The notes beneath the pieces are model-generated. The model was not told the origin of the DNA. It ran no database searches and saw only the letters and a list, made by a program, of their open reading frames with translations. Below are positions 15,026 to 36,087 of a DNA stretch of 36,087 bases, in pieces. Position 1 is the first letter of the stretch; each line of letters opens with the position of its first letter. A program made the translations under genes and the position numbers. This DNA is from Deltaproteobacteria bacterium (GTDB lineage Bacteria > Desulfobacterota > Desulfobulbia > Desulfobulbales > SURF-16): the NCBI GenBank assembly GCA_016219175.1, contig JACRCD010000097.1, forward strand, positions 1-36,087. Direction: 5' to 3'.

Positions 15026-16378
15026 TCAGCGTATTTTGTTATAGTAATCCTGCAGATCCTTTGCAAGAAATTTTCTGATTCGCCCCAGGTTTCCGCTATG
15101 AGTTCCCCCGAGATCCACCAGGGTTGCCTGGGCCAGCAGCACGCCGACCTTGCCCTCAACCTTGCCCCACAGAGTTTTCTTGTAGTTGCTGTCAAGATTG
15201 ACCAGGCCCGCCTTGCGCGCCTGACATTTTTTTATCAGTCCGGGCAAGCTCCATCGCGTAAACCAGAGCCAGGATAAAAACCAGACCATGGCCACCCCGG
15301 TAAGAGGAAACCACAAGTGGCGGGGGGCGGCGGTTCCGTTCAACAAGGCGCTTATCAGCGTTTCGTCCGGCACCCCGGTAAAGCTTTTGACAATCGGATC
15401 CGTGAGAATAAAGGCAGCCAGCCCGGCAACCAGGGCAAACTTGCCGGCACCTGCCAAAATTGCGCGACCCATGGAGCTGAAAGTGCACATTGCCTCGCAG
15501 ATCAGCAGCAGCTCATTAACCTGGCGGTCAATATCCTGCAGTATATGATTAACCCTGAATCCCGGGGCGGAAAAAATTTTCTTTTTCAACTGCTCCCGTT
15601 CCTCGCGCCAGACAGAAAGGGTTTCAGAGGGTTTGGCCTCGCCCGGCGCATAGGTCACATAGATAGTCGGAATATCCTTTCGGCCCGTCATCTGGGAAAG
15701 ATTCCAGCACAGGGTGCCGTAGGAGCGAACCAGATCGCTCAGGTTATCGCACTCATCGATGCGGCTCATGACAAAAACGATCCTATCCTCGCCGGAGGTA
15801 TCCGGCAGGGTGCTGCGAATGGCGGTGTAGGTCTCGCTGATTGTCCCTGCCTTGTGGGGATCAAACATGAGAACCACCAGGTCGGCAAGCTTGGCAAACT
15901 CCCCGAGCACGGCCAGATAATCATAGCCCCTATCCTTTTCCGTCACGGCATCTAGCATGCCGGGGCTATCTATCAGCGCCATATTTTCCAGAAAAGGAAC
16001 ATCAACTTTTTTTAAGCGGAAATGGCCGATAAACTGTTCGCCGAATGATTTAAAGCGCCCGAAAGGAAGAAAATCGTCATTTACCAGCGTGGAGCCGGGG
16101 ATTTCCATTTCACCATCCTCACGTCCATGGGAGGTGAGAACCGTGAAGGAATCATCGGTGGGCGCCTGCCCGGTGCGTTGGATTTTCTGACCTATAAGTT
16201 CATTGATCAAGGTCGACTTGCCGGAGGAATAATTGCCGATGACAAGCACAATCGGCTTCCACTTCAGTATGGACTCCAGATCAGCGTAGTCCAGACCATA
16301 GCGGTTAAAGAGCGGTAATAATCTATTGCGAACATGAAGCTGAAGTTCTGCCTGCAATTTTTTTTCGTCCATGGGCAT
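15026..16378 (-). CDS. Bacterial dynamin-like GTPase with a C-terminal hydrophobic/membrane region
   Basis: G1 P-loop GNYSSGKST, G3 DSPG and a G4-like SRID are present. The C-terminal third contains hydrophobic segments (FALVAGLAAFILTDPIV; LWFPLTGVAMVWFLSWLWF). ATG at 16376-16378. Confidence 0.75.
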   Translation of the reverse strand: MPMDEKKLQAELQLHVRNRLLPLFNRYGLDYADLESILKWKPIVLVIGNYSSGKSTLINELIGQKIQRTGQAPTDDSFTVLTSHGREDGEMEIPGSTLVNDDFLPFGRFKSFGEQFIGHFRLKKVDVPFLENMALIDSPGMLDAVTEKDRGYDYLAVLGEFAKLADLVVLMFDPHKAGTISETYTAIRSTLPDTSGEDRIVFVMSRIDECDNLSDLVRSYGTLCWNLSQMTGRKDIPTIYVTYAPGEAKPSETLSVWREEREQLKKKIFSAPGFRVNHILQDIDRQVNELLLICEAMCTFSSMGRAILAGAGKFALVAGLAAFILTDPIVKSFTGVPDETLISALLNGTAAPRHLWFPLTGVAMVWFLSWLWFTRWSLPGLIKKCQARKAGLVNLDSNYKKTLWGKVEGKVGVLLAQATLVDLGGTHSGNLGRIRKFLAKDLQDYYNKIR

Positions 16379-16500
16379 TAACGAGAAGCGGCTTATTTTT
16401 TGTATGGCGATAAGGGGAAAGGGATTCCGGAATTTTGACTAATTAACAGATAGCGGAGCAAATTACATTGAAATTTTCAAGAGTCTGGTGAGGTGGAATT

Positions 16501-17133
16501 TTATTGGCCAATAATGATTTGATCAGAAAGCTCATTGATATCATCAGGTTTGACAGGAAATTGGCTGGCCAGAACTTGCCCGACACCCTTGATCTGGTGG
16601 CAGAGAATTTCAGCGGCTCTGCCGGCTTTAACCCCCAAGGCGATATCGCGGGCGTAGGCCTGCAGGGCCTCCTGTTGGATTTTTTCGTAAATTCCCTTGT
16701 CCGCCAAAACCATGACCTTCCGTTCAAAAAGGGAAATAAAAAAAAGAACACCGCTCCTGCCCCGGGTTTTATCTAGACCCTTTTCATAAAACGCGGTGAG
16801 CGCCCTCTGCCGCACCTGCACTTCCAAGCGGACATCGGGGGTAAAAAATCTTTTCACCTGGGGCAGATAATGAACCAGCCACCCGCAAAGAGGCATCAGA
16901 ACAAAAGATATCACCACAAAAAACCACAAAGAATTCTTCCACAACAACTCCGTGGCAACAAGGGCCAGCAGGGCGCCGCAGAAGCAACCGGCCAGTATCT
17001 GCCCCTCGGGATAGGTGTCGCTCTGATCAACGACCATCACCGCCACTTCGCCGGATGTTTTGCACTCCACCTCGGCAATAGCACGGGAGATACTTTCCTG
17101 CTCAGCCGTTGAAAAAAAAGTTTCCGCCTTCAT
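16501..17133 (-). CDS. TPM-domain protein (second TPM gene of the lemA operon) with an internal TM segment
   Basis: The ORF track extends to 17394 through an Arg-rich artefact, which is the antisense of the upstream gene's Gly-rich tail. The real start is ATG at 17131-17133, 2 nt after the upstream TGA. The product begins MKAETFFSTAEQESISRAIAEVECKTSGEVAVMVVDQ (TPM-like), has a TM at LWFFVVISFVLMPLCGWLV, then ...RSGVLFFISLFERKVMVLADKG. Confidence 0.6.
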   Translation of the reverse strand: MKAETFFSTAEQESISRAIAEVECKTSGEVAVMVVDQSDTYPEGQILAGCFCGALLALVATELLWKNSLWFFVVISFVLMPLCGWLVHYLPQVKRFFTPDVRLEVQVRQRALTAFYEKGLDKTRGRSGVLFFISLFERKVMVLADKGIYEKIQQEALQAYARDIALGVKAGRAAEILCHQIKGVGQVLASQFPVKPDDINELSDQIIIGQ

Positions 17134-17135
17134 GA

Positions 17136-18020
17136 TCACCAATCGCCGGAAGCGCCGCCGCCTCCGAACCCTCCTCCGCCAAAACCGCCGAAACCACCGC
17201 CATGCCCGCCGCCGCCATAATACCCCATGCCACCGCCCAGCAAAATGTTGCCCAGCATGAAGGGCAGGAGAAAACCGCCGAAGGCGCCAACAGGAACCAG
17301 AAGCAGCAGCATGAGAAAACTGAAGGGCAACAGGCCGAAAAAAAAGAGTAGCGGAAACAGGATCCCTCCGGCAACCACACCAAGGGGCCGCCAAATTTTA
17401 CCCATGATGGCGACCACGAACATGCCGAAAAAAAGAAACTGCAAAAACGGCGATGACTCCTCCCCGTGCCGTCCCGCTCTTTCCCTCCGGCCCTCTGCCT
17501 TGAATTCTCCCCGGACAGCCTGCAAAATAGCACCAATTCCAGCCTCAAACCCCTCATCAAATCCGTCTTTCTTGAACAATGGCCTGATCACCGTATCGAC
17601 AATGCGTCCGCTCAACAGATCGGTGAGAACAGGCTCAAGCCCGCGGCCCACTTCAATGCGTATCTTTTTGTCGTTTTTGGCGACCAGGAGAAGAACGCCA
17701 TTATCCTTGCCTTGCAGGCCGATCTTCCACTGTTCCACCACTTTGATGCTGAAATCCTCCAGAGGCTCTCCATCCAGTGATGGAATGGTAAGGATTGCCA
17801 CCTGGGTGGAATCGGTAAGGTCAAAGGACTGCAGGGCTCGCTCAAGCTTCACTTCGGCCTGAGAGGAGATCAAATCGGCATAGTCATTGACGTAGCCTTT
17901 ATACGGCGGGATATCCAGGGCTAAGGCCGGACGACAGCCCAGGCGACAGGAAAAAACCGCCAGCACCAGGATGGCGACAGCCAGTCCCCATCCTCCCCTA
18001 TGTTGCGCCCACGCTTTCAA
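17136..18020 (-). CDS. TPM-domain (YgcG-like) membrane protein with a Gly-rich C-terminal tail
   Basis: The signal/TM region is followed by a TPM domain (YVNDYADLIS...VAILTIPSLDGEPLEDFSIKVVEQWKIG...GVLLLVAKNDKKIRIEVGRGLE). Then come TM helices and GGGMGYYGGGGHGGGFGGFGGGGFGGGG. TTG start directly abuts the lemA stop. Confidence 0.7.
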   Translation of the reverse strand: MKAWAQHRGGWGLAVAILVLAVFSCRLGCRPALALDIPPYKGYVNDYADLISSQAEVKLERALQSFDLTDSTQVAILTIPSLDGEPLEDFSIKVVEQWKIGLQGKDNGVLLLVAKNDKKIRIEVGRGLEPVLTDLLSGRIVDTVIRPLFKKDGFDEGFEAGIGAILQAVRGEFKAEGRRERAGRHGEESSPFLQFLFFGMFVVAIMGKIWRPLGVVAGGILFPLLFFFGLLPFSFLMLLLLVPVGAFGGFLLPFMLGNILLGGGMGYYGGGGHGGGFGGFGGGGFGGGGASGDW

Positions 18021-18608
18021 CTAAAATTTGACCTTCGGAGCTGCTTCCGCGCCTGCCTCGGCTTTAAACGGTTCCCGCCGCGGCAATTTCAGCAGAAAAT
18101 TGTTGGTCAGATTGTTCGGAAAGGTACGGATGGAGGTATTGAATACCTTGACCGTTTCGTTGTAGCGCACCCGGGCGACATTGATTCTGTTTTCCGTTCC
18201 TTCCAGCTGGTGCTGAAGGTCTCTGAAATTCTGATTGGCCTTCAGATCGGGATATTGCTCCACAACCACCATGAGGCGGGAAAGCGCTGAACTTAGCCCC
18301 CCCTGGGCCGACTGGAATTGAGCCAGCGCCTCGGGATTGTTGACCACATCGGCGCCGAGCTTCAATTGCCCCACCTTGGCCCTGGCCTCGGTTACTGCCG
18401 TGAGTGTTTCTTTTTCGTGGGCCGCGTAACCTTTTACCACCTCAACCAGATTGGGGATCAGATCCGCCCTTCGCTGATAGGACGCCTCGACATCGCCCCA
18501 GGCGGCAATCACTGCTTCATCATTCTGCTGAATCGTATTATAGCCGCAACCGCTGAGGCTAAGACAAAACAACATCAGTACCGGAAAAATCAACCTTATT
18601 CTTTTCAT
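18021..18608 (-). CDS. lemA: LemA family lipoprotein
   Basis: MKRIRLIFPVLMLFCLSLSGC has a lipobox. The rest reads as LemA-like (AVIAAWGDVEASYQRRADLIPNLVEVVKGYAAHEKETL...). The ATG at 18606-18608 is preferred over the TTG at 18668 shown in the ORF track. Confidence 0.75.
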   Translation of the reverse strand: MKRIRLIFPVLMLFCLSLSGCGYNTIQQNDEAVIAAWGDVEASYQRRADLIPNLVEVVKGYAAHEKETLTAVTEARAKVGQLKLGADVVNNPEALAQFQSAQGGLSSALSRLMVVVEQYPDLKANQNFRDLQHQLEGTENRINVARVRYNETVKVFNTSIRTFPNNLTNNFLLKLPRREPFKAEAGAEAAPKVKF

Positions 18609-18802
18609 AGCCGCCGCTCCCCAAAAATATTTATCAATAACACCAAATAGACTGTAATATTCTAGCAAACATCGCCTTTGTCAACCCCGCCTGCCCCTGT
18701 AATTTATTTATATGAAAGTCGACGGTGCTCGAAAATGACCATGCCGGAGCGCCGGACTTTTATGGTTCGTTGTGGCTGGCCAGCCTGGTCCAGCCATGCT
18801 GG

Positions 18803-28363: not shown

Positions 28364-30424
28364 CTAGCGCGGCACCCCCCGCAGTGGCGACTCAGCACCA
28401 TCCCCACCGCGTTCCCCGCGCCAGAGAGCTGTCTTCCGGCGGGAAATTGTCCCCACGCTCACCTCTTTCGCAGCCCTTTTGCCGTATTCATCCACCGCTA
28501 TGACCCGCAGGGCGGGACCGGAATCCGGAACCGTATAAAAGGATGCCGGCATGGCAAAGGAAATGATGGACCCCTGCTCGTTCATTTTTTTAATCTGCAC
28601 CGGGGTGCCGGAGATTTGCTCCCAGGTAAAATGCAGTTTTTCCCTGTTTTCGTCGGAGGTTGCGCTGGCGTCAATGCATACGGTTTCACCAACAGGGTAA
28701 GCCTTAGCCAGTTCCTTGATGTGTACTTGCGGGGCAAAATTGCCAAGCTTGACCCGCATGGTCAGCTTTCCTCTGCCGGATCTCAATCCCCCGCTCTCAA
28801 AGCGATAGTACAGGACATCGCGTCCCTCAAATGAGGGATCCGGCTGATAGCGGGACTTGCCCGCCTCGATTTTGCTCAGGGTTCCATTTAATTTAGAAGA
28901 ATCGATGTCAACATGAACCTTACTACTGAAAGGGGAATGATTAGCCTCGCGCCAGATACGGCCCCAGTCAATCGTCACATCAGCCGTGCTTTTTGTCTCA
29001 AAGGTCTTATTCTTGGCCCGAACCCCCGGTTTGCTTTGGGCTAATGCCTTTTTCTGCTCATCTTCCTTTATCTTTTCTTTGTCAGCCGCCAGTTTCGCCA
29101 GATCCGGGCCGGTAATGAGCACTTTCGCCACATTGCTGGTATCCTTGCCGTCACTGACCCGAAACTCCAGCTTGTCCTCGCCCGGGAAATCTTTATTCGG
29201 AAGGTAAATGTAGGCCGGCGCCTCACCGGAAAGGCGCCCATGCCCGGGAGGAATAGTCACCTCATAGGTCATTTTGTCACCGTCCCCATCCTGGGCGTCG
29301 AGGGTTAGCGCCACTTCTCCGCCACCTTCGGACATTTTCCAGATACTGTCGCTGGCAACAGGAACATTGTTTTGCGCCACCTCATTCCGCGCCTGTTCCA
29401 CGACTTGGGGCGCCTGTTCGACAACCGGCACGGGGATAGCCTGCTCTGCCTTCTTGCCTGGTTTGAAAAAATAAACCGCCGCGCCAATAACGAGGACGAG
29501 ACAAAGGGATAATCCCGCGGTAACAGCCTTATTGGCAGGGGGAAACCAGGTTCTTTTCGGTTTTTCCTGCTCCACCTCATCAGCTAGGTCAGCCCCTGAA
29601 AAACCGGCTACTGTTGCTTCCCTGGAGGATGTTTTGCTTGAAGAAGCAGCCGCTTTCCCGACTTCCAGGAAATCGTCGCCGCTTTCCAGAACATTGGCAA
29701 GATCGATGTCCTCAACCTCAAAAGGTTCTTCAATATCATCTTCGTCATCAAGCCCGGAAAAAAGCTGATCAATCTCATCCTGATCCACATCCAGACCCTC
29801 TCCGAGTCCGGGCGGCTTCTCCGTCCCTCCGGCCAGCAGGGCATCGATATTATCCTGACTAAAGTCAACCTCTCCCCCGCTTACGTCCTGTTTCTGCCCT
29901 GATCCTCCACTCAAGAGGATGTCAATGTTTGCCTGATCCAGTTCAAGACTTTCCGAGTCCGCCTGTTCTTCAGGTGCGGCCTCGGGGCTTGCGCTCTCTC
30001 CCATGCCGCCCAGCAGGGCATCAATATTGGATTGATCAAGCTCCAGGCTCTCCTCTTCCCGAGCCTCAACCGCAGCCGCCCGCGGCGGAGCTTCACTCTC
30101 CGCCATACCACCCAGCAGGGCATCTATATTGGACTGATCAAGCTCCAGGCTCTCCTCTTCCCGAGCCTCAACCGGTACTGCCCGCGGAGCTTCACTCTCC
30201 GCCATGCCGCCCAGCAGGGCATCTATATTGGACTGATCAAGCTCTGCTGAATCATCATCTCCACCTGAAGCTTCACGCTTTTCCGGCTGAGAATCCGGTA
30301 TCTCCTCGCCGCCCAGCAGGGCATCAATGCTCCCCTGGTCAAGTTCCCCGGAAAACTCGTCAGAGTCATCCAGATCCTCAAGCCAGTTATCGAGATCAGA
30401 GGTCGAATGTTTTTCTTCTGCCAT
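28364..30424 (-). CDS. Single-pass membrane protein. The acidic N-terminal region (~aa 27-245) carries 7-8 tandem L-D-Q-x-N-I-D-A-L-L-G-G repeats (FliM/FliN N-terminal CheY-docking-like). A TM helix follows, then two or three Ig-like (Big/cadherin-like) domains predicted to be periplasmic
   Basis: The repeats are ELDQGSIDALLGG, 3x SLELDQSNIDALLGGM(A/G)ESEAP, ELDQANIDILLSG, DFSQDNIDALLAG, DVDQDEIDQLFSG and a degenerate DIDLANVLESG. The TM helix is VTAGLSLCLVLVIGAAVYFF (~aa 301-320). The C-terminal domains carry the Ig-like signatures EVTIPPGHGRLSGEAPAYIYLPNKDFPGEDKLEFRVSDG and FEGRDVLYYRFESGG. Confidence 0.7.
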   Translation of the reverse strand: MAEEKHSTSDLDNWLEDLDDSDEFSGELDQGSIDALLGGEEIPDSQPEKREASGGDDDSAELDQSNIDALLGGMAESEAPRAVPVEAREEESLELDQSNIDALLGGMAESEAPPRAAAVEAREEESLELDQSNIDALLGGMGESASPEAAPEEQADSESLELDQANIDILLSGGSGQKQDVSGGEVDFSQDNIDALLAGGTEKPPGLGEGLDVDQDEIDQLFSGLDDEDDIEEPFEVEDIDLANVLESGDDFLEVGKAAASSSKTSSREATVAGFSGADLADEVEQEKPKRTWFPPANKAVTAGLSLCLVLVIGAAVYFFKPGKKAEQAIPVPVVEQAPQVVEQARNEVAQNNVPVASDSIWKMSEGGGEVALTLDAQDGDGDKMTYEVTIPPGHGRLSGEAPAYIYLPNKDFPGEDKLEFRVSDGKDTSNVAKVLITGPDLAKLAADKEKIKEDEQKKALAQSKPGVRAKNKTFETKSTADVTIDWGRIWREANHSPFSSKVHVDIDSSKLNGTLSKIEAGKSRYQPDPSFEGRDVLYYRFESGGLRSGRGKLTMRVKLGNFAPQVHIKELAKAYPVGETVCIDASATSDENREKLHFTWEQISGTPVQIKKMNEQGSIISFAMPASFYTVPDSGPALRVIAVDEYGKRAAKEVSVGTISRRKTALWRGERGGDGAESPLRGVPR
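30005..30250. repeat. Near-identical ~100-bp direct tandem DNA repeats (about 2.5 copies) inside the repeat-protein gene
   Basis: The unit gccgcccagcagggcatc(a/t)atattgga(t/c)tgatcaagctccaggctctcctcttcccgagcctcaacc... recurs with only a few substitutions. It encodes the SLELDQSNIDALLGGMAESEAP units. Confidence 0.8.
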
Positions 30425-30438
30425 GATCAGGCCTTTTT

Positions 30439-30987
30439 TCAGTTATTTTTGTAACTTTCCACATAGGAATGTAAAAACCGATAAACAGGTTCGGACATCT
30501 CCACATTGACCACATGCCCACGCCTTGCACCGAGACCATTTCTGCCGCTGATGTGGATGCGCAGGAATCCATCCATCTCTTCAATAACTCCTTCCATTTC
30601 CTGGGGGTAGTTGTTGTCCGCGGAATAGTGCGCCGCCGGTTCACTGTTAATCATGGCGGTCATCTGGTCGGCCAGGGTGATCCCGAGCATGGTTATTTTA
30701 GGAACCCTGCTGTCACTGATCACGGCAAAAGGCGCTACCGCAACCGTGGCCGGCCCGTAGAAATCATGGAAACCCTGGATGGCATCATCACAGATCAGGG
30801 TTACAATCTCAGACAGGTTTGAATAGCGCTGATAACTGATTCGTTCCGCATAATTGCTGTTACCAACCGCATCGTTTCCAGATCCTTCCTGGGCAAAAGC
30901 CGCAGGAACAAGCATACCCGCCAGAAAATGAAAGGATAGAAAGGCTGCGCCCACCCCGGCCAATAAGTTTTTCTGCAAATTTTTCAT
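30439..30987 (-). CDS. Secreted LpoB/FlgO-fold (COG3417-like) protein, paralog 3 of 3
   Basis: Signal peptide MKNLQKNLLAGVGAAFLSFHFLAGMLVPAAFA. The core reads VAVAPFAVISDS...ITMLGITLADQMTAMI...EGVIEEMDGFLRIHISG. A GGGGAG SD precedes the ATG. The stop lies 14 nt upstream of the repeat-protein ATG. Confidence 0.5.
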   Translation of the reverse strand: MKNLQKNLLAGVGAAFLSFHFLAGMLVPAAFAQEGSGNDAVGNSNYAERISYQRYSNLSEIVTLICDDAIQGFHDFYGPATVAVAPFAVISDSRVPKITMLGITLADQMTAMINSEPAAHYSADNNYPQEMEGVIEEMDGFLRIHISGRNGLGARRGHVVNVEMSEPVYRFLHSYVESYKNN

Positions 30988-31079
30988 TTATCACTCCCCC
31001 CAAGCGCCTATTCACGGCTGCTGAAAAAACATGTCCCAGAATTTCCGGACCTGTATCAAACTGTTGAGCAGCTGATAAA

Positions 31080-31847
31080 TCAGTTGTTCATTCCCCTGAC
31101 AGAAATGGTTAATGGCTGTTCCGCATCATAGAACAGCCCGAGCAGATCCTTGGTCAAAGGCATGGTATAACGCCAGGATGATTTCACCACACCATCCAGC
31201 AGACTGACCAGTCTTCCCTGAATAATCAAGGTTTTCCTGGTGTTGCTGAAGGTGGTTACCACGACATAATCAACCTCGGGGGTGATGTCGGCAAGTTCGC
31301 CAATATTACGCGTCAGGATAAATTCGCCGGTCTGGGCCAGAATATTGATTTCCTTGCCCAAGCGCAACTCATTGACCTTTATGCCGCGGTCAGCCAGATC
31401 CGTCAGCAGATACTCCGCCATCACCCGGCCAAACTCTGTATCTCGCTTTAAATCCGACAAAGGAACCGCGGCCACGACCGCAACACGCGCCGTATAATTT
31501 TTTTCTCCGTCTTCTTTCAGCTCATAAAAAACCTTGCCCGCCACCTCCTTCGAGATATCGGACAGCTGACCTTCCGTTGCCTGGGAACGGGAACTTTCAG
31601 GCATATACTGGTATATCCGGTGGCTCGGCGTAGAGACAGAGGCCTGTTTTGCCTGCCTGCCATCTCCTACCTGCTCAACATTGAGAAAGGCGCTTGGCGA
31701 GGCCCTCTTTTTTTCAGCAGACTGACCGGGCGGCTCATCATAGGCCTCTTCAGCGTTCCATCGCGCCGACGCAGGAGAAGCTGCCGTAAAATTAATAAGT
31801 GACAACAATAGGCCGCAGACCGCCACTTTCATTATTGTTTCCTTCAT
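31080..31847 (-). CDS. Secreted LpoB/FlgO-fold (COG3417-like) protein, paralog 2 of 3
   Basis: Signal peptide ...MKVAVCGLLLSLINFTAASPASA. The core VAVVAAVPLSDLKRDTEFGRVMAEYLLTDLADRGIKVNELRLGKEINILAQTGEF...VDYVVVTTFSNTRKTLIIQGRLVSLLDGVV fits the LpoB/FlgO pattern. ATG at 31845-31847 with an AAGGGAG SD. GTG at 31850 is in the ORF track. Confidence 0.55.
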   Translation of the reverse strand: MKETIMKVAVCGLLLSLINFTAASPASARWNAEEAYDEPPGQSAEKKRASPSAFLNVEQVGDGRQAKQASVSTPSHRIYQYMPESSRSQATEGQLSDISKEVAGKVFYELKEDGEKNYTARVAVVAAVPLSDLKRDTEFGRVMAEYLLTDLADRGIKVNELRLGKEINILAQTGEFILTRNIGELADITPEVDYVVVTTFSNTRKTLIIQGRLVSLLDGVVKSSWRYTMPLTKDLLGLFYDAEQPLTISVRGMNN

Positions 31848-31937
31848 CACATTCTCCCTTTCCTGAAATGCACAGAGTACTTTAGTTACTGCCCGCGTTA
31901 ATAATCTTGGCTGGCTGCGGCATTCACAAATTTCAGA

Positions 31938-32609
31938 CTACATCTCAAGCCGTTTCATGTAAATCACCCCTGCCGGCTTGTTTCTGGCAGTGGCCGTATC
32001 TTTAAGCATCATGATGCCTAAGTTGTTGAGCGGAAAAACCATTGTGGCGCTGGATAACAACCCACCCCTTTTATTGTCGAGAATGCGGGCGTTCACTATA
32101 ATTTCCTTTTCCCCCACCAGATATGTGCCCGTGAGCATAGCCCCGGACGCCTGGGAAGAAAGAATTTCGGCAGGATCCCGGGACAGGCCGAATTCCCCTC
32201 TCTTCTCCTGCACCATGACACTTAAACTCTTCCGCATATCGAGAACGGGGTAGCCATAACGCTGAAATTCATTCAGCAGCTGTTCAGCCACGTACCGTCC
32301 AAATGACGATGTTCTGTAAAGATTGTTGATATCAACAAGGATGCAAACAACTACCCCGTCAGCCAAATCACCAAGCTGCGGATCAGGTTCCCCAAGATTG
32401 GCCAAAAGCTCTTCCGCAAGGGACTGAACCTTTATCCGCAACTCATCTGCTTCGCTTTTTTTGCCTGCCGCCCCATCGAGAGTTCGTGCGGACGGCTCTA
32501 GATAGGAAGGGGTCCTTCCCTCACCCACAAACTGCCCCGCCAGTCCATACCCAGGCAACGCCTGGAGAAAAAAAACAAAAAAAATCATTATGTTGCGTAA
32601 TAGAGCCAT
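31938..32609 (-). CDS. Secreted LpoB/FlgO-fold (COG3417-like) protein, paralog 1 of 3
   Basis: Signal peptide MALLRNIMIFFVFFLQALPGYGLAG. The core VVVCILVDINNLYRTSSFGRYVAEQLLNEFQRYGYPVLDMRKSL...SGAMLTGTYLVGEKEIIVNARILDNKRGGLLSSATMVF matches the LpoB/FlgO consensus spacing. AAAGGA SD. Confidence 0.55.
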   Translation of the reverse strand: MALLRNIMIFFVFFLQALPGYGLAGQFVGEGRTPSYLEPSARTLDGAAGKKSEADELRIKVQSLAEELLANLGEPDPQLGDLADGVVVCILVDINNLYRTSSFGRYVAEQLLNEFQRYGYPVLDMRKSLSVMVQEKRGEFGLSRDPAEILSSQASGAMLTGTYLVGEKEIIVNARILDNKRGGLLSSATMVFPLNNLGIMMLKDTATARNKPAGVIYMKRLEM

Positions 32610-33084
32610 CTGTTCATCCTTTTAGCAATCCATGTCTGTAATGAAAAAAGTAAGCCCTGTCCCGGAAGAGAGAGCAACTCATGATAAACATCATGGTGCG
32701 CATGTTTTCTTCTCTAGTAATTTTAACCATCGGTACAACCCGCTTTATTCTTTAAAAAAAAAGCACCATCGTTTAATTTAGGGAGTGTTCAGAAATGAAC
32801 ATTCTATTTCTAAGCCGTTGTCAATAAATTACTGTAACACCCCATGCGTGGCAACGGCATAAGGGGCCGTATAGATGATATCAAATCTGTAATGGTTATT
32901 TTATACCGGCCCCTAACCATTTCATTCCCGTCTCCTTATCCCGGTTACAGGTGTGCGATGTCACGAATATTGTTTTACGCCGGCTTAGAAAAGATTGAGC
33001 GCGGGATTGCAAAAATGGTTAAATGCAAAGCAACAAAGCGGGCGCTACATTCAATACTAAAACTACTCGTGGTAAGAATTACCG

Positions 33085-33585
33085 ATGAACAGCAGGGAAG
33101 CATATCTGGAGGAGGAAATATTCATTATTGAGGATTCTGGAGGGGAAATGCCCGAAGTCGCGTTGCACGGCTCCCTTTACTTTCTGAGCAAAGACCCGGA
33201 CGGCCCGGCCCTTGTGCTGAAAAAGCAAGAGATCTTCCCCTTGAAAACAGCGGTGATCAACCGTTATCAGACCATCATTCTCCGCGATCTGCGCCCGGAA
33301 AACCGCAAGAAGAGCATGTACCGGGGGGTGAAAAGAAGCTTTATCAACTGGCGGCGTCTGAAACTTTTTGCCGCGGCGGAAAACATCGACATTACCCACG
33401 TGCGCAACCATGTTTCCACCGCCCTGCTTTCTTTCATAGCCAATGAAATCCGCTCCGTGGCCCAGGCCGGCGAGCCTTCCTGCGTCAACTGCAGCCGCGA
33501 CACACTCCATGAATTTATCTCTGATCTGGGTCTTTGCAGCGAAGATCTTGTCCGCGGCTGGCAGGATCTGTGCTGCGAGGAGTAA
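33085..33585 (+). CDS. Hypothetical protein (166 aa). It may instead start at ATG 33148
   Basis: Open frame with plausible composition. I recognise no motifs. The C-terminus is Cys-containing (CVNCS...LCCEE). Confidence 0.4.
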   Translation: MNSREAYLEEEIFIIEDSGGEMPEVALHGSLYFLSKDPDGPALVLKKQEIFPLKTAVINRYQTIILRDLRPENRKKSMYRGVKRSFINWRRLKLFAAAENIDITHVRNHVSTALLSFIANEIRSVAQAGEPSCVNCSRDTLHEFISDLGLCSEDLVRGWQDLCCEE

Positions 33586-33650: not shown

Positions 33651-35342
33651 TCAGTGGTTAATCCAATTGCTTTTTGCCTCAAGCTGAGGATCGGATCCCT
33701 TGGTGAGTTGCACGACATAGCAGCCTTTCGAGGCATAGCGCTGGGCCGGGCCAAAGCTCAGATTGGGATAGACGGGGATCGTATAGTTCTGATCAATCAT
33801 CATATCAACGCCCTCCATGAAACGTTCCCGATAAAAATCACGGCGCATGTATGTCAGAACCCCCGTGAGTGCTCTGCCCAGGAAGAATACTTTCCCCTGG
33901 AGCACTATATCGGTTAACGGTAATTTTTTGATTTTCAACCAGGATTGCAAGGCAAGCTTCTTTCTTGCTCCATCCTGGGGGAGGTCATAAGGATAGGTAA
34001 TGTAGATGAAATCCCGCATTGACTCGGGTAAAGCGGACAAGGCTTTATCCTGCTGACTCGACGAAACAAACACCATCCGCGGCCGGCCAGGGGTATCGGC
34101 CAGTTTGTCGATGGCTGCCAGATCCGACGGTTTCAGCCACAGCAGGACAATATCCGCGTGAAACTCATCGACCAGCTGTTTCCAGAAGTCGCTGCCTAGA
34201 GCCTCTTGGGGCTGCAGCATCTTGTTTGCCGGTTCTCCCTGCCCAAGCAGCTTCCAGGTATCCTGAAAACCGTTTGCCAGATAGCGGCCTTCCACATCAT
34301 CCCGGAAAACCTGCAGGACTTTAACCGGCTTGAAATCAGCTGTTCCCCGCAGATAACGGGCCGCTGTCTCCCCTTCCTGATAGAGTCCCTTGGAAAAATA
34401 CTGGGTGTACCAGTCCGTATCTGAAATAACCGGAAAATCCGTGAGAGGAAAAAGGCAGGGAATTCTATGTTTTTCGCAAAAATCATGGATGGGTTTCCAT
34501 TCCCTGGTGGATATGCCCCCCACAAAACCGAAAACCGGTTCCTTTTTATAATACTCCTCCAGCTGATCCCCCCACGTCGCGGGTTCCCCGTGCAATTCCC
34601 ATTTTTTCAGCTCTACCCGCCGATAGGCGGTATAGAATTCAAGTTTGTAAAAAACTCCTTCCTTGGCCCGTTCTTCCTGGTGTCTTGACTGGACATTCTT
34701 ATCACGGATATAGGCATCCAGAAAACTCATCACAGCCTCCCGCGTCTCTGCCGGCACCTCATCGGTGATTACCGTGGCAAACTTTATGGTTGTCTCGTCA
34801 ACCCCTGGGGAAAAATCGGCGGAAAGATGTTTCAGATAATAGATCATGACCTCCATGTCCTTCTCATTCAGGGAATAGCGCGGCATCACCTGATCAAGTT
34901 CCCGCCCTGCCGGGTCAAGCCCCCAAAGCAATGCCGCGGCAAGGGTTTCATCGCTGTAGGCCGGGCGCAGATAATCTTTTTGAAATTGCTCGGCAAACTC
35001 CTTGCGCATCGGCCGGATCACTTCCGATCCCATGGGATAGTCCCGGTACAGATCGGCGCCGTTGGTCGGCAGGGTGATAACACTTCCTTCCACCGAACCG
35101 AGTCCGCTGCGCAAATGGCAGGATTCGCAGGTAAACATGGCGCCATCCACCGGAATATCCTTCTGAACGATGGCCTCCATCGCCTCACCGGATGGCAGCA
35201 GTCCCTGACGATACATCCGCTCGCCCAGGCGCAGGGCCTCTTCAACAGGATAACCCGCTATGGTTTGGGGCGGATCGCCGGCAAAAGAGTCCGCCGGAAG
35301 CAAAAATAACATCAGCCATAGGCAAAAAATGATTCTTGTCAT
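33651..35342 (-). CDS. Periplasmic fusion protein: N-terminal mono-haem cytochrome c-like domain (CESCH) plus a C-terminal type-1 periplasmic solute-binding-like domain
   Basis: Signal peptide MTRIIFCLWLMLFLLPADSFA with an AAGGGAG SD. A single CxxCH (FTCESCHLRSG) lies ~70 aa from the N-terminus. The remaining ~430 aa resemble LivK-type PBP1 proteins by spacing, but I am unsure of the family. Confidence 0.5.
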   Translation of the reverse strand: MTRIIFCLWLMLFLLPADSFAGDPPQTIAGYPVEEALRLGERMYRQGLLPSGEAMEAIVQKDIPVDGAMFTCESCHLRSGLGSVEGSVITLPTNGADLYRDYPMGSEVIRPMRKEFAEQFQKDYLRPAYSDETLAAALLWGLDPAGRELDQVMPRYSLNEKDMEVMIYYLKHLSADFSPGVDETTIKFATVITDEVPAETREAVMSFLDAYIRDKNVQSRHQEERAKEGVFYKLEFYTAYRRVELKKWELHGEPATWGDQLEEYYKKEPVFGFVGGISTREWKPIHDFCEKHRIPCLFPLTDFPVISDTDWYTQYFSKGLYQEGETAARYLRGTADFKPVKVLQVFRDDVEGRYLANGFQDTWKLLGQGEPANKMLQPQEALGSDFWKQLVDEFHADIVLLWLKPSDLAAIDKLADTPGRPRMVFVSSSQQDKALSALPESMRDFIYITYPYDLPQDGARKKLALQSWLKIKKLPLTDIVLQGKVFFLGRALTGVLTYMRRDFYRERFMEGVDMMIDQNYTIPVYPNLSFGPAQRYASKGCYVVQLTKGSDPQLEAKSNWINH

Positions 35343-35353
35343 CTGGAGCTCCC

Positions 35354-35950
35354 TTATGGTTTACTCATTTCTTTCTGGAGATTGCCGTATTCCGCCATCA
35401 AATCCGCCGTACTGATCATGCCGTAGATCCGCACCCACTTATCACTGCCTGGCATACAGAGAAACGTCACGGGAAAATGATTCATCTTGTTCGGCACAAA
35501 GGCGTCAAAGGCGCGCATGACAGTTTCTATGTCCTTGCGGGTGCCGGTCAGGAAATCCCAACCCGGTTTGGCCCGGTACCTGTCGAGATAGTCGCGCATC
35601 ACCTCGGGTGTGTCATATTCAGGATCAATGGATACGGAGACAAATTGCACCTTTGCGGCATCAGGACCAAGCTTATTCTGCATATTGGAAAAACCGGCGG
35701 ACAAAACCGGGCAGATGGTGGTGCAGGTTCCATAGATAAAATCAAGCAGCACGGGCTTGCCCGCCTTGAGGAGTTGCCGCAGCTTCACCTCTTTCCTTTC
35801 CTGATTGATCAAGGTCACATCTGGAATGGTATACTGGACCACGGAGCGCTCATAACGTTTTTCTCCGGCCTGACTTGGGTAAGGGACCAGCAGGAGCATA
35901 CAGAGCACCCCAAGTAAGCAACAATGCTTCATAATTCTCTGGATAAACAT
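35354..35950 (-). CDS. SCO1/SenC family thioredoxin-fold copper chaperone
   Basis: LLDFIYGTCTTICPV (CxxxC) and a downstream ...H... are conserved Sco features. The ORF track starts at GTG 35998. The ATG at 35948-35950 (MFIQRIMKHCCLLGVLCMLLLV signal) has an AAGG SD. Confidence 0.7.
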   Translation of the reverse strand: MFIQRIMKHCCLLGVLCMLLLVPYPSQAGEKRYERSVVQYTIPDVTLINQERKEVKLRQLLKAGKPVLLDFIYGTCTTICPVLSAGFSNMQNKLGPDAAKVQFVSVSIDPEYDTPEVMRDYLDRYRAKPGWDFLTGTRKDIETVMRAFDAFVPNKMNHFPVTFLCMPGSDKWVRIYGMISTADLMAEYGNLQKEMSKP

Positions 35951-36087
35951 AAAACACCTTTTCCCATAACTACCGTTAAAAATTTTTGTGATTACCACTA
36001 AGTTTCAGTTTTTTAACTGGTAGGACGCTATTTGTCCTATCTGCCATGGCATACTCCTTCAAAAAACATTCATTTAATTGAAGGAGA

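Follow-up and report, generated by a model that had tools for sequence, protein, structure and literature searches.

Flagellar motors vary among bacterial lineages chiefly through added periplasmic rings and scaffolds, such as the H and T rings of Vibrio, the disk and cage of Campylobacter, and the collar of spirochaetes. To our knowledge, almost nothing is known about such elaborations in Desulfobacterota. Here, a candidate system of this kind is described from a 36,087-nucleotide (nt) stretch of DNA, hereafter the window, which is contig JACRCD010000097.1 (positions 1 to 36,087) of assembly GCA_016219175.1, a Deltaproteobacteria bacterium placed in the Desulfobulbales (Desulfobacterota; Desulfobulbia; SURF-16). 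The system is an apparent operon of four genes, P3-P2-P1-P4, which encodes two FlgO-family proteins (P3 and P2), an orphan secreted protein (P1), and a membrane protein (P4) with repeats that resemble the EIDAL motif of FliM.

Several described systems offer points of comparison. The FlgO protein of Vibrio cholerae is an outer-membrane lipoprotein that forms a 58-fold (C58) ring alongside FlgP, within the H-ring by which the motor is anchored to the outer membrane (bioRxiv 10.64898/2025.12.02.691832). In Arcobacter, the products of an operon with the paralogs flgO and flgO' are proposed to form multiple concentric rings that associate with the outer membrane (PMC9321776). The EIDAL motif of FliM binds phosphorylated CheY (CheY-P; PMC6946799) and also the flagellar-number ATPase FlhG (bioRxiv 10.1101/2022.04.21.489128).

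The locus shares a number of properties with the Vibrio system. P2 and P3 carry the same domain as Vibrio FlgO, a long N-terminal linker precedes helix 1 in both cases, a majority of P2 orthologs are predicted to be lipoproteins like FlgO, and the promoter-like element suggests regulation of the late-flagellar type. In contrast, the operon does not lie in a flagellar cluster, neither FlgP (LPP20) nor FlgT was found as a partner, and the copies in the window lack a lipid anchor. The partners here, an orphan protein of 182 amino acids (aa) and a bitopic protein with EIDAL-like repeats, are absent in Vibrio. Arcobacter likewise has two diverged FlgO paralogs side by side, whereas its description mentions neither a third, fold-related protein nor a transmembrane (TM) repeat protein. 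Because Arcobacter belongs to a different phylum, the FlgO duplication described here may be independent of that one.

A conserved four-gene unit

The four genes are encoded as follows, in order of their apparent transcription:

31938–32609, minus strand: P3, secreted FlgO-family protein of 223 aa, no lipobox, first gene of the operon
31080–31850, minus strand: P2, secreted FlgO-family protein of 256 aa from a GTG start, with a linker of ~70 aa ahead of the domain
30439–30987, minus strand: P1, secreted orphan of 182 aa with a predicted LpoB/FlgO-class alpha/beta fold
28364–30424, minus strand: P4, bitopic membrane protein of 686 aa with a predicted acidic cytoplasmic tail, one TM helix, and predicted periplasmic immunoglobulin (Ig)-like domains

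The intergenic gaps are 87–90 nt (P3-P2), 92 nt (P2-P1), and 14 nt (P1-P4). An alternative start for P2, an ATG at 31847 that gives 255 aa, has better Shine-Dalgarno spacing than the GTG. In the public record of the contig, which belongs to a metagenome-assembled genome (MAG), the locus tags are HY885_18600-18610. Hydropathy and direct reading show that P1, P2, and P3 each begin with a hydrophobic segment ending in an AxA-type cleavage site. The original prediction of three tandem secreted proteins of 182, ~255, and 223 aa, running on the minus strand into a repeat-protein gene, was correct in its open reading frames, coordinates, and gaps.

The order P3-P2-P1-P4 is a conserved four-gene unit. 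A scan with the P3 alignment across one genome per GTDB species returned 80 loci, 77 of them in Desulfobulbia, with carriers that include Desulfurivibrio, Hydrosulfovibrio, ‘Desulfobia’, and many MAGs. The complete genome of Thiovibrio sp. JS02, fetched separately, also carries the operon order. This order recurs in every locus long enough: tblastn detected all four genes in ~65 of the 77 Desulfobulbia loci, and the rest end before P4. Two loci are without P1. Identity to the window proteins ranges from 60% down to 31% for P4 and from 68% down to 34% for P1. The suggestion that the secreted proteins are co-operonic with the repeat protein consequently extends well beyond the window, and homologous operons that lack the repeat protein were not encountered within the Desulfobulbia clade. 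One operon-bearing contig of 4.8 kb (locus L060 of the scan, JAIWHJ010000185.1) comes from a MAG labelled Promethearchaeota archaeon and is most likely a binning contaminant.

Outside this clade the picture differs. Three distant loci (L079, L080, and L081), all from MAGs labelled Thermodesulfatator, encode three tandem FlgO-domain proteins without P1, P4, or the sigma-28-like motif described below. At least two members of the triplet (8964-11841 in L081) are lipoproteins, and an unrelated 224-aa lipoprotein follows the three. The wider comparison therefore separates FlgO triplets that lack the repeat protein from the Desulfobulbia operons that have it, and shows FlgO arrays to be older than the link with P4.

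By sequence comparison, P2 and P3 are proven to be diverged FlgO paralogs. Against the Pfam FlgO family (PF17680; curated cutoff 22.6 bits), P3 scores 102.2 bits (E 2.4e-29) and P2 84.9 bits (E 5.4e-24), while the two proteins are 28% identical to each other (BLASTP, E 4e-9). The P3 family profile matches the V. cholerae FlgO chains of the in-situ motor structures 9YDS and 9YFG over ~115 residues (E 3e-19), and P2 aligns with 9YDS as a single sequence (E 0.005). These proteins are thus new members of a known family; what is new is their combination with P1 and an EIDAL-repeat membrane protein.

Lipid anchoring varies among the orthologs. A heuristic search found a lipoprotein signal in 55 of 78 P2 orthologs, 11 of 78 P3 orthologs, and 6 of 72 P1 orthologs, and the lipobox cysteine is absent from the window copies of all three proteins. 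The nearest relatives of the window P2 (e.g. those in L006 and L007) have likewise lost this cysteine, so that in this P2 subclade a lipid-anchored FlgO-like subunit may have become a soluble one. Approximately 33 of the 78 P3 orthologs (from L019-L073) carry a conserved F-W-P-F-like motif right behind the predicted signal-peptidase site, which the P3 of the window lacks.

P1 is a different case, and is an orphan family as judged from its sequence. It has no Pfam or NCBIfam match and no BLASTP similarity to P2 or P3, and its profile has no match in PDB. Among 1.84 billion cluster representatives, the profile recovered only 50 proteins, all of them orthologs or ortholog fragments except for one weak match to a 907-aa repeat protein. 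On these grounds P1 was rejected as a FlgO paralog, and the ‘triplicated paralog set’ of the original prediction was overstated: its LpoB/FlgO-type trio stands as FlgO for P2 and P3, and as a predicted LpoB-like fold alone for P1. Profile alignments between P1 and FlgO (hhalign) reached probabilities of 5% with a small alignment and 24% with a large one, partly driven by the signal peptide. Their overlap is confined to the N-terminal helix-strand-helix, where helix 1, strand 1, and the start of helix 2 are in register, and the start of helix 2 follows the shared pattern [KR]-x-[ST]-x-[LF]-G-x-x-[LV]-A-[DE]-Q-[LM].

Structural models place P1 closer to its neighbours than its sequence does. The AlphaFold model, built from a 35-sequence alignment with a pLDDT (predicted local distance difference test) of 76, runs helix-strand-helix-three-stranded meander-helix. 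In the order of its elements, the P3 model differs by one extra strand behind helix 2. Both models match the same structures, in the LpoB/PelC/TolB-N/FlgT fold class, an outcome in keeping with the fold originally proposed. A Foldseek search of the P1 model against PDB gave no significant match; its highest-ranked hits, to histidine-kinase ATPase domains, had TM-scores of ~0.2 and were spurious. P1 is therefore predicted to have the FlgO/LpoB fold class, while homology to FlgO is not demonstrable. The proposed analogy with LpoB, the activator of PBP1b, is supported at the level of the fold only. The predicted models have an LpoB-like globular fold, but neither Pfam nor NCBIfam matched P1, P2, or P3 to the LpoB family, and the operon and its flanks contain no penicillin-binding protein gene.

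A membrane protein with EIDAL-like repeats

The fourth gene encodes a protein whose two halves differ in character. Its principal features are:

29753–30343, minus strand: array of seven FliM-N/EIDAL-like motif copies (P4 residues 28-224), LDQSNIDALLGG and variants
29459–29527, minus strand: TM helix of P4 (residues ~300-322, within the hydrophobic segment 297-323)

The N-terminal 295 residues contain 28% Asp+Glu and include the motif array, whose seven copies are six regular-expression matches plus ‘FSQDNIDALLAG’, identified by direct reading. The Kyte-Doolittle profile peaks at 2.29 at residue 301, and all other segments remain at or below 1.6. Beyond this helix, residues 352-438 match Pfam Big_9 (E 2.9e-15) and Cadherin_5, and residues 580-628 are PKD-like. 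The N-terminal region lacks a signal peptide, and the domains at the C-terminus are of kinds found outside the cytoplasm, so that a cytoplasmic tail and a periplasmic Ig-like part are probable.

All 151 homologs of P4 are of Desulfobulbia type. Among the 118 that are near full length, the motif consensus is E-L-D-Q-[DS]-[ND]-I-D-[AS]-L-[LF]-[GS]-G, with 1-11 copies per protein (mode 4), all of them N-terminal to the TM helix and none C-terminal to it. Some orthologs (P0218 and P0279) have a conserved LPWPY[RP]D tail at the C-terminus, which is missing from the P4 of the window.

The repeat is close to a peptide found in FliM and FliY. Written as L-D-Q-x-[N/D]-I-D-A-L-L, it can be set beside the FliM consensus L-S-Q-x-E-I-D-A-L-L, with which it agrees at 7-8 of 10 positions and shares the core IDALL. 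The motif also appears to be cytoplasmic, lies in a disordered acidic region, and belongs to a gene apparently under a flagellar-type promoter. The architecture differs, since FliM has one copy at the tip of a C-ring subunit, whereas P4 has its copies in tandem on a membrane-anchored protein. A weak alignment to the N-terminus of FliY was obtained (E 0.38), a Pfam scan found no FliM/FliN (SpoA) domain in P4, and sequence searches of PDB with the repeat and the periplasmic part gave nothing meaningful. No earlier account of EIDAL repeats, of FlgO in Desulfobacterota, or of the four-gene module itself was found in the literature searched.

The upstream element and the neighbourhood

One conserved element stands ahead of the operon:

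32727–32754, minus strand: sigma-28 (FliA)-type promoter-like element, TAAAGAATAAAGCGGGTTGTACCGATGG, beginning 145 nt upstream of the P3 ATG

An initial scan of the 500 nt upstream of P3 found sigma-28-like sites at 50 of 74 loci, compared with an expectation of 3.5 from shuffled sequences. The strict form TAAA-N17-CCGAT occurs in 61 of the 74 upstream regions, compared with five true off-target matches in 1.24 Mb (both strands). The remaining loci carry TCAAG or TTAAG in place of TAAAG at an unchanged distance, and the motif was therefore widened to T[ACT]AAG-N16-CCGAT. In this form it lies upstream of P3 at 75 loci and occurs 11 times elsewhere in the same 1.24 Mb (both strands), an enrichment of ~170-fold. 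When 24 diverse upstream regions of 320 nt were aligned with MAFFT (mean identity 22%), the only invariant columns were T.AAG and CCGAT, with a T-rich tract ahead of them.

The variants of this element coincide with those of mapped FliA promoters in Escherichia coli, where the -35 box is TAAAG (tar, tsr), TCAAG (flgKL, fliL), or TTAAG (ycgR), and the -10 box takes the forms CCGATAA and CCGATGA (PMC4203485). The same three -35 variants and both -10 forms occur at the loci studied here. As a conserved sigma-28-type promoter-like element, it supports a flagellar link independently of the proteins, and its sequence suggests that the operon has such a link.

Other candidate signals were less productive. 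A sigma-54 promoter upstream of the operon was considered and rejected (0 of 74 loci). No Rfam match to a riboswitch or other known RNA was found in the window or in the long 5' leader, while generic promoter and terminator scans performed no better than on shuffled sequence and revealed no conserved intergenic terminator-like site above chance. No usable sigma-28 consensus for Desulfovibrio was found in the literature searched. Other matches to the motif within the loci are almost all intragenic, and two recurrent ones derive from conserved P1 coding sequence (NVEMSEPIYRALHSYV). The highly conserved C-terminal coding sequence of P1 (VNVEMSEPIYRALHSYV) yields, in some loci, sigma-28-like matches (TAAA-N16-CCGATAT/AA) on either strand, shortly upstream of P4. 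These were seen in L060 (2454) and L066 (9197), and antisense at the end of the P1 gene in L024, L029, L034, L046, L052, and L067. They are probably a coincidence of coding sequence, or may represent an internal promoter for P4.

The surroundings of the operon are themselves partly conserved. Upstream, and divergent from it, lies a further gene:

33085–33585, plus strand: DUF7826 gene (Pfam DUF7826, E 2e-49), divergent from the operon, of uncertain functional membership

Its product is a cytoplasmic protein of 166 aa with a Cys-rich C-terminus, and a divergent DUF7826 gene also precedes P3 in 58 related loci and in Thiovibrio. The gene may be tied to the operon by function, or by synteny alone. 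Convergent rpe and M16-peptidase genes are syntenic downstream at related loci. Because all these flanks are syntenic, part of the conservation reflects clade-wide synteny.

Elsewhere, the window contains genes for housekeeping and redox functions. One gene (33651-35342, minus strand) encodes a 563-aa secreted protein with a CxxCH haem-binding motif (CESCH) and a Peripla_BP_6 domain; a SCO1/SenC-type gene (35354-35998, minus strand) adjoins it, and neither is kept beside the operon in other loci. Further away on the minus strand (15026-18668) are genes for a dynamin-family GTPase (15026-16378), a TPM-domain protein (16501-17394), and a LemA-family protein (18021-18668), with spacings of ~120 nt between the first two and ~630 nt between the last two. 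These may form a membrane-remodelling or stress cluster with no relation to the FlgO operon.

Flagellar and other readings of the operon

We lean, if only somewhat, towards reading the operon as a lineage-specific, FliA-controlled accessory module of the flagellar basal body. That the genes form an operon is indicated by their shared strand, tight spacing, and single promoter, and the four would be transcribed together from the FliA-type promoter. P3 and P2, the latter predicted to be lipid-anchored in most species, would surround the flagellar L and P rings with a periplasmic ring or disk resembling the H-ring, with P1, predicted to share their fold class, as an extra subunit or adaptor. The periplasmic Ig-like stalk of P4 would touch this structure, so that the 4-8 FliM-N-like peptides of its disordered, acidic tail would come to lie beside the C ring and bind a protein that recognises the EIDAL motif. 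This could be CheY-P, for which the tail would act as a local buffer, sink, or concentrator, or alternatively the MinD-like ATPase FlhG, in which case the tail would contribute to the control of flagellar placement and number, or some other protein. From the features described above we infer ring formation, the contact between P4 and the FlgO proteins, the binding partner of P4, and the dependence on FliA. A more specific proposal is that P4 is a flagellar component of a kind not known before, a TM tether held through its Ig-like stalk by the H-ring-like FlgO assembly, whose tail presents CheY-P docking peptides in a multivalent array and serves as a CheY-P sponge or concentrator at the C ring that tunes switching. 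This proposal seems unlikely to us; if true, an outer periplasmic ring would be physically coupled to chemotaxis signalling.

Cultured carriers of the operon are flagellated. Desulfurivibrio dismutans AMeS2, which carries it (L074), and D. alkaliphilus are motile vibrios with one or two ‘thick’ subpolar flagella (PMC12142623). The flagellar context that was originally proposed is thus supported by the biology of the carriers and by the sigma-28-type element, but not by the position of the operon, which in none of the 80 loci lies next to flagellar genes (±10 kb).

Several observations weigh against a flagellar role. Profile scans of the window proteins revealed no flagellar or chemotaxis gene, as the original prediction had stated, and none was found within 10 kb of the operon in the 80 loci apart from a few genes for methyl-accepting chemotaxis proteins (MCPs). 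Five MCP genes within the loci lack the promoter motif. The spacer of the element is one nt longer than in the E. coli consensus from which the putative sigma-28 label is taken. The motif of P4 is too short for significant database scores, and the conserved Glu of FliM is replaced by Asn or Asp in ~91% of its copies. The P2 and P3 of the window lack the lipid anchor of Vibrio FlgO, and no homolog of FlgP or FlgT was seen. FlgO/TolB-N-like domains are also known in non-flagellar proteins. As regards the spacer, sigma-28 holoenzymes tolerate one additional base.

Among the alternatives, the one that survives best would place P4 outside the motor, as a polar landmark or hub like HubP and FimV, anchored in the envelope through the FlgO-like proteins and recruiting ATPases of the ParA/MinD type (FlhG, ParC) or chemotaxis arrays to the pole. 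HubP and FimV, too, cross the membrane once and have long acidic repeats, theirs recruiting polar and flagellar factors, and the acidic, multi-repeat, apparently cytoplasmic region and single TM helix of P4 fit such a part. EIDAL is a known binding site for FlhG, with which HubP cooperates. A FliA-type promoter would suit a polar flagellar programme, and the flagella of the carriers are polar or subpolar. Against this, Pfam and NCBIfam scans found neither LysM nor the FimV C-terminal domain in P4, its repeat sequence differs, and its topology is the reverse of that of HubP. There is no ParA-like gene near the operon loci, and the strictness with which P4 accompanies FlgO-family proteins argues for a structure close to the motor. 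A polar hub is consequently a rather doubtful explanation.

The operon might also have no flagellar role, with its FlgO/LpoB/PelC-fold proteins serving in the periplasm or outer membrane as scaffolds of a machine that spans the envelope, whether for cell-wall synthesis, for polysaccharide export, or for another task. An unrelated cytoplasmic partner would then bind the IDALL repeats, and a different sigma factor or a regulator would act at the upstream motif. This would account for the neighbourhood devoid of flagellar genes, the MCP genes without the motif, and the FlgO triplets of other lineages that have neither P4 nor the motif; indeed, the fold class includes LpoB, PelC, CsgG, and TolB-N, all of which work outside flagella. 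Membership by sequence is specifically with FlgO, however, and the closest solved relative is a flagellar ring subunit. The upstream element fits both sigma-28 boxes, known variants included, and the P4 repeat agrees with most of the FliM EIDAL consensus, so that a purely non-flagellar envelope system appears improbable. Finally, it is very unlikely that the four genes are adjacent merely through shared ancestry in a narrow clade, with the likeness of P1 to FlgO a chance result of a common alpha/beta fold, since despite the syntenic rpe, M16 peptidase, and DUF7826 flanks and the lack of a sequence link between P1 and FlgO, the genes share a strand with gaps of 14-92 nt, are preceded by one conserved promoter and interrupted by no conserved terminator-like site above chance, keep their order while protein identity drops to 31-45%, and encode three small secreted proteins together with a P4 whose periplasmic part is large.

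If the operon is a flagellar accessory module, it represents a candidate parts list for motor elaboration in sulfur-disproportionating Desulfobulbia, a group with several cultured members. P4 is unusual as a membrane protein with many copies of a peptide like the one through which FliM binds CheY-P and FlhG. Were the proposed roles confirmed, the envelope part of the motor would be connected in a new way to chemotaxis or to the control of flagellar number, and the EIDAL peptide would be a portable docking module that can be multimerised. The orphan P1 family would then also acquire its first functional context.

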